From a virus (Duplodnaviria; Heunggongvirae; Uroviricota; Caudoviricetes), in IMG/VR virus record IMGVR_UViG_2531839524_000005: a stretch of DNA of 34,440 nucleotides; one strand, written 5' to 3'. This document shows positions 24,980 to 26,329 of this stretch, in pieces. Each line of letters opens with the position of its first letter. Within the stretch, counting starts at the first letter, position 1. The notes under the pieces are model-generated. The model ran no database searches. It saw nothing but the letters and a program-made list of their open reading frames with translations, and was not told the origin of the DNA. The translations under genes and the position numbers were made by a program.

Positions 24980-25070
24980 ATCACAGTTTTATGATAAAAC
25001 TTTTACCTTGGTTTGGAGTGCTGTAGAGAGATATTTTAGGGGGGCGAGTAATTTTCTAAGCTGGAGCATA

Positions 25071-25100
25071 TTGACATATATTATTTCGGATTTGCAAAAT
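25071..25100 (+). promoter_or_regulatory. Candidate sigma70-like promoter for the AT-rich insert gene
   Basis: TTGACA at 25071..25076, 18-bp spacer, CAAAAT at 25095..25100; followed by GGAGG and ATG at 25129. Confidence 0.3.
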
Positions 25101-25128
25101 ACAGATTGTAACCATGGAGGAGACAAGC

Positions 25129-26289
25129 ATGGAAAATTTTGCAAATAAGTTAAAAATACACACAGAGCATGTTGCAAAAATGGGGGTGTTTTGTACAACT
25201 GAAGAAACGACAAAACAAGCACTCATTATGCCATTACTAGATATTCTTGGTTTTACTCCGTATGATCCAAGAAAAGTCAAAGCTGAGTATAGTGCTGACT
25301 TCCCCGGGGTTAAGGCTAATGAACGGGTTGATTACGCTTTATTTTGTCATGATGTTCCTGTGATGTTCATTGAGGCGAAATCGTTTTCAGAACAAATTGA
25401 TAATCACTGCCCACAGCTATCAAGATATTTTAATTCAACACCGGAAGTTACTATATCAGCCATTACAAATGGTGTTGAATGGCGTTTTTTTACGGATTTG
25501 AAACAAAAAAACATAATGGATTCAACGCCGTTTTTAAAATTAAGAATGGATTCTCTAACTCACTCCGATATTACACAATTATTTCGTTTTCGTTATGATA
25601 AATTCAAACCAGAGGCTTTACGGACACTGGCTGAAGAAAGTGTTTATTTGAATTCATTTACTAAAACAATCAGTTCTAGTCTTCGTGAAGTTGATCTGGA
25701 GTTTGTTCGATATGTTGCTAGTCGTTCAAATATTGAGAGGCAACTTAATCAGAGATTTCTTGAGTTCGTGACTCCATTAGTTAAACAGGCCGTTGAGCGC
25801 GCTGTTAGCGCAATGGTGGTTTCCGGGCTATCTACACAACCGGTAGAGCAAACTAAAGAAAATGATGCAACGGATACACAAGTTAATAACGCCATTGTTG
25901 ATGAAGAAAACCCCAACATAATAACCACAGCCAAAGAATTGGAGCTATTTGAAAGGGTAAAACAAATCATACAAACAGAAGATAATATAGAATATAAAGA
26001 TACTGAGTCATATTTCGGTGTACTATTGAATGGTAAAACTAATAGATGGCTGTTAAGATTTTATGATAAAAAATCTTCATTTATAACTTTACCTATTTCG
26101 CTTAGTGAAGTTCAGTTGAATGAAATAAGACGAGCTCGACTTGATACGGATGGTAAAAGGATACATATAACTAATCCGGAAGATATACTTCGCATATCTG
26201 GTTTGATTCTGGATTCATACGAGTATGTTAAAAATGATGATAATTTCCGCCGAGGGTCCAGAGTGAGCAGTTTAGAAGAGGTTGAATAA
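25129..26289 (+). CDS. Accessory protein with N-terminal HsdR-N/Mrr-like PD-(D/E)xK nuclease motif and an unassigned C-terminal domain; candidate defence or exclusion gene
   Basis: ATG 25129 with GGAGG 8 nt upstream (the track start 25114 is in the same frame). N-terminus ...TKQALIMPLLDILGF...ERVDYALFCHDVPVMFIEAKSF fits the HsdR N-terminal nuclease pattern (recalled). Coding block is visibly AT-rich compared with the flanking tail genes and ends at its own terminator. Confidence 0.55.
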   Translation: MENFANKLKIHTEHVAKMGVFCTTEETTKQALIMPLLDILGFTPYDPRKVKAEYSADFPGVKANERVDYALFCHDVPVMFIEAKSFSEQIDNHCPQLSRYFNSTPEVTISAITNGVEWRFFTDLKQKNIMDSTPFLKLRMDSLTHSDITQLFRFRYDKFKPEALRTLAEESVYLNSFTKTISSSLREVDLEFVRYVASRSNIERQLNQRFLEFVTPLVKQAVERAVSAMVVSGLSTQPVEQTKENDATDTQVNNAIVDEENPNIITTAKELELFERVKQIIQTEDNIEYKDTESYFGVLLNGKTNRWLLRFYDKKSSFITLPISLSEVQLNEIRRARLDTDGKRIHITNPEDILRISGLILDSYEYVKNDDNFRRGSRVSSLEEVE

Positions 26290-26295
26290 GTAAAA

Positions 26296-26318
26296 AACCC
26301 GCGAAAGCGGGTTTTTTA
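26296..26318 (+). terminator. Rho-independent terminator after the AT-rich insert gene
   Basis: Stem cccgc / gcggg with loop gaaa, followed by TTTTTT. Confidence 0.7.
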
Positions 26319-26329
26319 ATGGAGTAAAT

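Follow-up and report, generated by a model that had tools for sequence, protein, structure and literature searches.

The window analysed here is a stretch of 34,440 nucleotides from a Rac-site E. coli prophage, and it carries in its baseplate region a cargo cassette of 1331 bp (24991-26321). The breakpoints of the cassette, between 24990 and 24991 and between 26321 and 26322, were determined from BLAST alignments and junction sequences with phage Rac-SA53 as the reference, and they coincide exactly with gene boundaries, namely the stop codon of a small gene in the baseplate region and the start of a Baseplate_J gene. Limits proposed for an insert in a preliminary description, which had been made without such a reference, turn out to be nearly exact. 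The locus contains the following features:

24415..24458, + strand: upstream terminator-like hairpin, followed by UUUUUGUUU (-24.8 kcal/mol, z = -3.7)
24632..24979, + strand: left flank, conserved 115-aa baseplate-region gene, rac59 of phage Rac-SA53 (PHROG 7986)
24991..26321, + strand: cargo cassette (moron), comprising all sequence that differs from Rac-SA53-type relatives
25071..25100, + strand: promoter-like element of the sigma-70 type, TTGACA-N18-CAAAAT (10/12 positions, consensus match only)
25116..25120, + strand: Shine-Dalgarno sequence GGAGG, 8 nt 5′ of the ATG, from sequence
25129..26289, + strand: coding sequence of 386 aa (RefSeq WP_000426903.1, PHROG 4225), from the open reading frame and a profile match
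25186..25533, + strand: nuclease head, aa ~20-135, a PD-(D/E)xK domain of the HsdR_N / type IIG type
25534..25833, + strand: helical connector, aa ~136-235, conserved in sequence, basic (pI 9.5), modelled at low confidence (pLDDT ~60)
25834..25914, + strand: acidic linker, aa ~236-262, of variable length, disordered (pLDDT <40, pI 4.05), with variable alignment columns
25915..26253, + strand: C-terminal alpha/beta domain, aa ~263-375, with a double-wing-like predicted fold and no Pfam model
26291..26318, + strand: cassette terminator hairpin AAAAAACCCGCGAAAGCGGGUUUUUU (-17.4 kcal/mol, z = -5.0)
26330..27556, + strand: right flank, Baseplate_J/gp47 family gene (Pfam Baseplate_J, PHROG 6)

The AT-rich character ascribed to this block in the preliminary description is borne out, as its GC content is 0.359, versus 0.490 for the remaining window. 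It is the lowest-GC segment of its length in the 34.4 kb (1331-bp windows: mean 0.487, sd 0.033, placing the cassette at about -3.9 sd) and the sole such segment below a GC of 0.42. The same deviation is seen at third codon positions, where the GC3 of the cassette gene is 0.26 versus 0.42-0.62 for adjoining genes. The promoter-like element, the GGAGG ribosome-binding site, and the dedicated terminator that had been read from the letters were all located. The first is the top promoter-like site within 24300-26500, while the terminator hairpin lies directly 5′ of the ribosome-binding site of the J gene, was equalled in stability by 0/200 shuffles, and is flanked by A/U residues, making it potentially bidirectional. 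An unrelated cargo cassette in strain ETEC1703 ends in an analogous hairpin. The intra-operon terminator also described upstream is real, but it is situated ~540 nt away, between a V-like spike gene and the small W-position gene, and does not adjoin the cassette. Similarly, of the two baseplate neighbours that had been named, the J-like gene is supported by its Pfam and PHROG assignments, whereas the gene on the left is W-like by position only, since it belongs to a PHROG of unknown function and has no Pfam match.

The segment has a promoter (consensus match only) and a terminator of its own, deviates in composition, and is missing from close relatives. It is a classical prophage moron, consisting of a promoter, one gene, and a terminator placed in an intergenic junction. 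As a promoter-gene-terminator unit within a late operon, it is similar to the Hendrix-type morons, including lambda bor and lom and those of HK97.

To delineate the polymorphism of this slot, the 88 of 5426 E. coli genomes that carry the 115-aa left-flank gene were taken as the tail-module set. The cassette is present in 25 of these 88 complete genomes, at an identity of at least 99% and with every copy in the W/J slot, and is missing from the other 63. In the cassette-free relatives examined, the tail genes are ~96% identical and the slot is filled by Ant/LprI-type cargo. In none of the 88 genomes are the W and J flanks separated by less than about 800 bp, and thus no case was found in which the two baseplate genes are adjacent without an insert. 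A conserved virion protein present in all relatives is thereby ruled out, and a reading of the product as a virion structural protein was rejected on the basis of the slot polymorphism. Swappable cargo and foreign composition together support the earlier view of a horizontally acquired, non-structural accessory gene. The location of the gene within the baseplate module, and the resemblance of its predicted C-terminal fold to that of the transcription factor MotA (see below), could be taken to indicate a virion or baseplate component or a DNA-binding, regulatory protein for which catalysis is irrelevant. This is very improbable given that the gene is missing from most relatives with the same baseplate, that its composition is foreign, that its homologues are mostly found outside structural modules, and that all of its catalytic motifs are invariant throughout the superfamily.

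The slot data bear in the same way on a role in the service of the phage itself, for example in degrading host DNA, in recombination or processing, in counter-defence, or in excluding competing prophages alone, during induction. The gene is co-oriented with the late operon, antiterminated late transcription would cross the cassette provided that transcripts dependent on Q disregard terminators, as they do in lambdoid phages, and PHROG 4225 is placed in the category "DNA, RNA and nucleotide metabolism." However, because 63 of the 88 related prophages lack the gene while the examined tail genes are ~96% identical, the phage cycle can dispense with it. The presence of a dedicated promoter and terminator, the frequent co-orientation of homologues with a repressor and not with lytic genes, early or late, and the existence of chromosomal copies without any phage also argue against such a role, to which we assign a low probability.

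The protein begins at 25129; an in-frame ATG at 25114 was rejected as the start because the N-termini of homologues begin MENF or MxNF. In agreement with the HsdR-N nuclease N-terminus noted previously, whose quoted motifs are present, the head matches Pfam HSDR_N (53 bits versus a cut-off of 25.1, E = 5e-14) and HSDR_N_2 (37.7 bits versus 25). Both the catalytic D...(D/E)xK motif and a RecB-type QxxxY motif are found in the head, with D68 encoded at 25330-25332, E82-A-K84 at 25372-25380, and Q96xxxY100 in the same domain. Residues E25, K29, E53, D68, E82, K84, Q96, and Y100 are at least 99% conserved among 124 cluster representatives of 30-55% identity, and 45 close homologues show no variation at D68, E82, K84, Q96, or Y100. 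At the level of sequence, the active site of the PD-(D/E)xK nuclease head is intact. Sequence searches of the PDB, in which the protein and a profile built from 45 sequences served as queries, yielded nothing meaningful.

The C-terminal domain is modelled confidently (pLDDT 87), and its predicted fold resembles the double-wing domains of YdhG (DUF1801), YjbR (DUF419), and the C-terminal domain of T4 MotA, a resemblance at the fold level only, with 7-14% identity and no profile-level match. For this domain in 10 diverse members, no Pfam match beyond noise was obtained at E ≤ 10, and no modified-base reader (SRA, PUA/EVE, Mrr_N, and similar) was recognised. The domain is a putative targeting module that most likely binds nucleic acid.

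RefSeq names the protein "type I restriction endonuclease," and the nuclease head is indeed common to type I HsdR (EcoR124I; HSDR_N, PF04313) and to type IIG/IIL enzymes (BpuSI and the DrdV/MmeI class), as is the helical connector. In contrast to both groups, the cassette protein has no SF2 helicase/translocase, methyltransferase, or target-recognition domain and no hsdM/hsdS neighbours, and its head is instead fused to the double-wing-like domain of ~110 aa. HSDR_N families are the only Pfam matches, with the NCBIfam model PRK11448 scoring 19 bits versus a cut-off of 729 bits, and no fused methyltransferase domain was detected by Pfam in the 386 aa. Neither the annotated prophage genes to the left of the cassette nor those to the right include a methyltransferase; hsdM and hsdS are absent from the cassette, from the annotated prophage, and from the top neighbour families of 80 species loci, where no methyltransferase or other conserved neighbour was found either. 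Methylases do occur near some homologue copies, although inconsistently. The gene thus stands alone, without a conserved partner across the 80 loci, as expected of the single-protein system that had been suggested. With helicase, methyltransferase, and conserved partner all missing, the RefSeq name is misleading, and a classical restriction-modification reading was rejected for want of a methylase.

Type IV enzymes such as Mrr and SauUSI are closer in design, having no cognate methylase and combining a PD-(D/E)xK nuclease with a small putative DNA reader in one polypeptide, and some relatives bear the JGI label "predicted type IV restriction endonuclease." However, the cassette protein has no known modified-base reader domain by Pfam, and its domain order is the reverse of that in Mrr. 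A scan of PADLOC-DB v2.0.0 (5027 models) gave no match to the query at E ≤ 1, and with 10 distant members as queries only type IIG nuclease heads were matched below E = 1e-3, weakly; this silence marks the family as unrecognised rather than validated. The PICI-encoded FS_HsdR_like system of DefenseFinder, associated with work of Fillol-Salom from 2022, is said to be a full HsdR-like helicase-nuclease. A literature search found no functional study, phenotype, or biochemistry for any member of the family.

The family as such is already catalogued but functionally uncharacterised: PHROG 4225 "endonuclease," for which the annotations "prophage Lp2 protein 6" and COG2810 are also in use, is matched over its full length (E = 9.5e-149, residues 1-370, profile positions 1-357 of 357). 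At E ≤ 1e-3, a word-indexed protein search recovered >1,300 clusters from the database; among representatives clustered at 50% identity, 289 were recovered at E ≤ 1e-30; and 182 relatives were confirmed among 185,579 species with one genome each, using patterns that reach the close Proteobacterial subfamily only. Identity is at least 60% across Enterobacterales, Pasteurellales, Orbales, and Neisseriales, and the three-part architecture is kept in phage homologues at 30-37% identity. In three pairwise comparisons (with the Stx2 prophage, C. koseri, and A. pleuropneumoniae copies), pN was 0.09-0.28 and synonymous sites were saturated, a pattern of strong purifying selection across orders.

An S24/HTH CI-type repressor gene is the -1 neighbour in 17 of the 80 species loci, often with a gap of 9-10 nt. 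The repressor-then-nuclease order is also found in Citrobacter, Providencia, Morganella, and Klebsiella phage KpF5, in a Salmonella prophage with an rve-family (Mu-like) transposase, and, for homologues of 30-37% identity, in phages of Streptococcus, Clostridium, Corynebacterium, and Fusobacterium. Other copies are located downstream of the antiterminator gene Q, on the strand opposite to Q in the Stx2 prophage and between Q and the lysis genes in an Actinobacillus prophage, and N-peptide genes are among the +1/-2 neighbours in two loci. Homologues therefore appear to occupy slots of temperate phages from several phyla that would be expressed in the lysogen. Such placement matches the accessory sites anticipated earlier, where prophages keep exclusion or defence genes, and the position directly after cI or after Q is shared with lambda rexAB and other prophage exclusion genes. 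The proteins are unrelated to those of rexAB and the morons, and here the effector is a nuclease, not a membrane or ion-channel system. A further set of members, in Serratia, Gilliamella, and Microvirgula, consists of stable chromosomal singletons without phage or defence neighbours; five Serratia species loci are syntenic, all with an isochorismatase-family -1 neighbour.

These contexts bear on two other explanations. First, a homing-endonuclease-like selfish gene would cut cassette-free W/J junctions or other targets, spreading through recombinational repair and benefiting neither host nor phage. A lone, AT-rich nuclease gene that brings its own signals, fits precisely into the junction of two conserved phage genes, and is found at many different loci has this appearance, and the arrangement of a catalytic domain, a flexible linker, and a small putative DNA-binding domain is reminiscent of I-TevI-type enzymes. 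Yet no empty target allele exists in the 88 E. coli genomes, where the slot always has cargo; the flanks in different phages are unrelated; the gene is often in the repressor operon, where lysogenic expression has no use in homing; and the Serratia orthologues are syntenic. Considering also the strong purifying selection across orders and a nuclease that by Pfam is outside the known homing-endonuclease families, homing is improbable.

Second, the product could be a toxin-type nuclease of abortive infection, inactive in the lysogen and, upon infection, degrading host and phage DNA alike to kill the cell. Consistent with this mechanism, neither a methylase nor an immunity partner accompanies this orphan nuclease, some relatives adjoin toxin-antitoxin genes (HicA twice, RES twice, and HicAB in a Porphyromonas phage), and the abortive-infection genes rexAB of lambda follow the CI repressor gene, as do the repressor-following copies here. 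Conversely, the 80 species loci contain no conserved antitoxin-like or regulator partner, no sensor domain is recognisable by Pfam, and the architecture, with a nuclease joined to a small putative DNA-binding domain, is closer to that of restriction enzymes directed by a site or feature than to that of triggered effectors. Abortive infection is accordingly an unlikely explanation, albeit one that merits some weight.

The reading we favour, at slightly better than an even chance, is that the cassette encodes a candidate single-gene, methylase-independent, restriction-like defence, in which a lysogen-expressed nuclease would be targeted against foreign DNA by its C-terminal domain; the gene probably protects the host from other viruses. 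According to this model, the product would be an orphan restriction-type endonuclease whose head and connector, otherwise N-terminal in type I HsdR and type IIG enzymes, are tethered through the flexible acidic linker to a small double-wing-like, nucleic-acid-binding domain. The lysogen would transcribe the gene, here from its own promoter and in many relatives as part of the CI-repressor operon. The C-terminal domain would recognise some feature of incoming foreign DNA, and the tethered head would cut nearby, probably once two molecules join, as for other enzymes with this head; this cleavage would cut short a superinfection by other phages or by mobile DNA. As there is no accompanying methyltransferase, self-DNA would be spared either because the host lacks the recognised feature or because activity is gated by infection. 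A feature absent from the host would imply a type-IV-like mode, dependent on modification or structure.

Several observations count against this defence model. Very high conservation, as judged from sequence comparison, is atypical of defence proteins engaged in co-evolution with phage triggers; the chromosomal singletons in Serratia, Gilliamella, and Microvirgula lack phage or defence neighbours; and the helical middle of the model is of low confidence, while the promoter is a consensus match only.

More tentatively, and at less than an even chance, the family may constitute an unrecognised class of single-polypeptide, methylase-independent restriction enzymes. In these, the type I/IIG head and connector would have been separated from the motor and the methylase and joined instead to a DNA reader of the double-wing type. 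Temperate phages of Proteobacteria, Firmicutes, Actinobacteria, Fusobacteria, and Bacteroidota would carry the gene for lysogenic conversion, in a slot equivalent to that of rexAB, and so keep out superinfecting phages. The reader may respond to a DNA modification or structure, much as the modified DNA of T4 is read by the double wing of MotA.

Should the defence model be wrong, the locus is still a clean textbook moron. If it is true, Rac-type prophages would have in their W/J junction a defined hotspot for cargo that deserves to be mined, since the slot is never empty and at least three different cassettes alternate in it. The C-terminal double-wing-like module would join the list of DNA-targeting readers, and the RefSeq label would be corrected. 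A widespread, mis-annotated family would then represent a new minimal restriction module by which prophages protect their hosts.

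The window is an E. coli prophage at the Rac site, and window 24000-27500 is 99.9% identical to ETEC O169:H41 strain F6326-C1, in which the element is flanked by ttcA/intR and uspF/ompN and includes xisR, ralR, recET, and kilR. The AT-rich block, single ORF, promoter-like element, ribosome-binding site, and dedicated hairpin noted between two baseplate genes in the preliminary description were all recovered, confirming its observation of a one-gene insert (the cassette). GC content is 35.9% in the cassette and 49.0% in the remaining window. Among all 1331-bp windows of the 34.4 kb (mean 0.487, sd 0.033), the cassette is the GC minimum, and no other falls under 0.42; GC3 is 0.26 for its gene versus 0.42-0.62 for neighboring genes. 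An in-frame ATG at 25114 was rejected as the start codon, as the N-termini of homologues correspond to the second ATG. The terminator said to lie upstream of the cassette exists as a hairpin, but it precedes the small upstream gene rather than the cassette.

Features of the cassette and its upstream flank (window coordinates)
24415-24458: terminator-like hairpin, z = -3.7
24632-24979: small W-position gene, labeled by position
24991-26321: cassette, GC 35.9%
25071-25100: promoter-like element TTGACA-N18-CAAAAT, best match within 24300-26500
25116-25120: GGAGG ribosome-binding site
25129..26289, + strand: nuclease ORF, 386 aa
26291-26318: cassette hairpin, -17.4 kcal/mol, z = -5.0

Homology to phage Rac-SA53 and its relatives (~96% identity) ends at 24990, 11 nt past the upstream stop codon, and restarts at 26322, 8 nt ahead of the start of the downstream gene. 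The J-like label of the latter holds, its product being a Baseplate_J protein, while the W-like label of the upstream gene has a positional basis only. These exact breakpoints, together with other cargo in relatives of the Rac-SA53 type, bear out the view of the block as an inserted, non-structural gene. At this W/J slot, Rac-SA53 (L002 4991-6837) carries an AntA antirepressor and two small unknown ORFs on the opposite (minus) strand; ETEC1703 (L008 5359-7318) carries an Ant fragment and a 356-aa gene with the RefSeq name "LprI family" and no Pfam match, ending in its own, different terminator hairpin just ahead of the same J ribosome-binding site; and E. coli W/LY180 has a ~0.9-1.0 kb version, apparently Ant alone. 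Besides the nuclease cassette, the slot therefore has at least three cargo versions. An antirepressor within a baseplate operon is odd in itself. Of the 5,426 complete E. coli genomes searched, 88 have the W-position gene, and 25 of these carry the cassette at ≥99% identity, every copy in the W/J slot; none of the 88 has the flanks less than about 800 bp apart, and there is therefore no empty site. Stx2 prophages carry a divergent allele (78% identical, 85% at the protein level) just downstream of antiterminator Q and on the other strand. By definition, the cassette qualifies as a moron, located in a polymorphic hotspot for cargo, and its gene is swappable cargo, not structural. A nuclease serving the phage's own cycle is improbable, the gene being missing from most close relatives.

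A second, small variable slot seems to lie between the V-like and W-position genes, in region 24459-24625, right after the 24415-24458 terminator. This region contains a small ORF (24527..24625 from an ATG; alternative GTG at 24488), the counterpart of rac58 in Rac-SA53, whose 32-aa product has one hydrophobic helix (MAEKLSTWKFLLIWLVFLILASGYFVGQIRWW) and could be a small membrane peptide or type I toxin-like element. Window 24432-24624 shows ~83% identity to mostly unannotated DNA of about 39 Stx-converting phages, and E. coli strain JNU has other sequence in place of 24479-24618. Elsewhere in the window (~9674-11110; L001 5675-7111), a 478-aa gene right after the large terminase has the RefSeq name "anti-CBASS protein Acb1 family protein"; since it occupies the position expected for the portal gene, this name may be a mis-annotation or reflect a fusion.

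The HsdR-N-like N-terminus proposed for the cassette protein is matched over ~135 residues by Pfam HSDR_N (E 5e-14) and HSDR_N_2. E25, K29, E53, D68, E82-x-K84, and Q96-xxx-Y100 are invariant in 45 close homologues, and the same motif set is ≥99% conserved among 124 cluster representatives (30-55% identity); the restriction-type active site is intact. The QxxxY element is known in RecB-family and HsdR nucleases. An inactive, regulatory, or structural protein is very improbable, given these invariant catalytic residues and the polymorphic slot. AlphaFold2 gave pLDDT above 90 for the N- and C-terminal domains, about 60 for the helical middle (136-235), and below 40 for the variable acidic linker (236-262). 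Type I/IIG character extends from the head into part of the helical connector, and the head is common to the cassette protein, type I R subunits, and type IIG enzymes. Both identities were rejected because tests for their defining domains were negative: the protein lacks a helicase, a methyltransferase, and a target-recognition domain, and the NCBIfam type I endonuclease model gives it 19 bits, the cut-off being 729. Thus, "type I restriction endonuclease", its name in RefSeq, fits a single domain rather than the whole protein.

The C-terminal part, which had matched nothing recognized, likewise has no Pfam model (ten diverse members searched up to E 10) and no relative in a PDB sequence search. 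T267, E270, R310, and the pattern TT.EEL...KD..Y are conserved across the whole superfamily. Modeled separately (pLDDT 87), this part has its best fold matches in the "double-wing" group, suggesting a small, double-wing-like domain tethered to the head. In working mode, the closest likeness would be to type IV or type IIS-style "reader plus cutter" enzymes, although, unlike type IV enzymes, the cassette protein has no known reader domain.

Over its full length, the protein belongs to PHROG 4225 "endonuclease" (E 9.5e-149), a family also catalogued as "prophage Lp2 protein 6" and COG2810; none of the PADLOC v2 models represents it, and no functional study was found in the literature. The family is thus known but uncharacterized, while the protein's architecture varies the restriction-nuclease theme in a new way. 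Among 50%-identity representatives, 289 matches have E ≤ 1e-30, and the majority share this architecture at a length of 340-420 aa; Enterobacterales, Pasteurellales, Orbales, and Neisseriales all have homologues at ≥60% identity. Synonymous sites are saturated and pN is 0.09-0.28, indicating strong purifying selection.

Co-oriented copies lie right after a CI/S24-type repressor in Citrobacter, Providencia, Morganella (two different lambdoid backbones), Klebsiella phage KpF5, and a Salmonella prophage encoding an rve-family (Mu-like) transposase. The order repressor-gene-integrase is found for 30-37%-identical homologues in Streptococcus phage IPP25, Fusobacterium phage FNU_1P, Corynebacterium phage Juicebox, and a Clostridium phage. 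An Actinobacillus prophage has its copy between Q and the lysis genes, and a Porphyromonas phage has one after HicAB. In lambda, rexAB occupies the slot after the repressor; the family recurs at such sites of lysogen-expressed prophage accessory genes, including the rexAB slot. Homologues are also present on Borrelia and other plasmids, including full-length ones (25-26% identity) on 20 Borrelia/Borreliella plasmids of 32-45 kb (H191, H192, H201, and 17 more), whose size suggests that some may be cp32-type prophage plasmids. Isolated chromosomal singletons occur in Serratia, Gilliamella, and Microvirgula. Five Serratia species loci (L058, L059, L060, L064, L065) have an isochorismatase-family gene as the -1 neighbor, and in S. 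entomophila (L026/L027) Pirin/isochorismatase and DCC1-like genes flank the homologue and the vicinity is free of phage genes, suggesting long-term chromosomal retention outside prophages. The layout of the cassette protein resembles that of I-TevI-type enzymes, which would suit a homing-endonuclease-like selfish gene; this reading is improbable, as there is no empty target allele, flanks vary among hosts, the gene is frequently within repressor operons, and the Serratia orthologues are syntenic.

Across 80 species-level loci, the immediate upstream neighbor shares the strand of the homologue in 63 and is an S24/HTH repressor in 17, with Q, tail (Dit-like, gpT), HicA, or RES genes in a few each; no conserved partner was found among downstream and -2 neighbors, and no methyltransferase among the leading neighbor families. 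The cassette is self-contained, without partner genes. The lack of an immunity partner makes an indiscriminate, abortive-infection-type nuclease plausible, if unlikely overall. DNA methyltransferase genes are encoded opposite the homologue, no more than 1 kb away, in a Salmonella prophage (L024/L025 5230-6000; MethyltransfD12-type) and an Stx2 prophage (L009 7130-8188). Since this link is not conserved elsewhere, they are probably the phage's own orphan methylases, which could matter if the nuclease is methylation-sensitive.

Somewhat better than even is the case for a defense or exclusion nuclease of the reader-plus-cutter kind, a putative function supported within the reach of sequence evidence. 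The nuclease would be made in the lysogen, where its C-terminal domain would bind a feature of incoming DNA and the tethered head would cut nearby, probably by two molecules together, as with other enzymes bearing the same head. Self-DNA would be spared either through absence of this feature from the host, as in a type-IV-like mode, or through gating of the nuclease activity. Recognition of an invariant nucleic-acid feature fits better than that of fast-evolving phage proteins, because all three domains are highly conserved and variation is confined to the linker. Sited in a defined cargo hotspot and amenable to experiment, the cassette is a good candidate for a minimal restriction module carried by prophages, unsurprising in kind and one of many such candidates.
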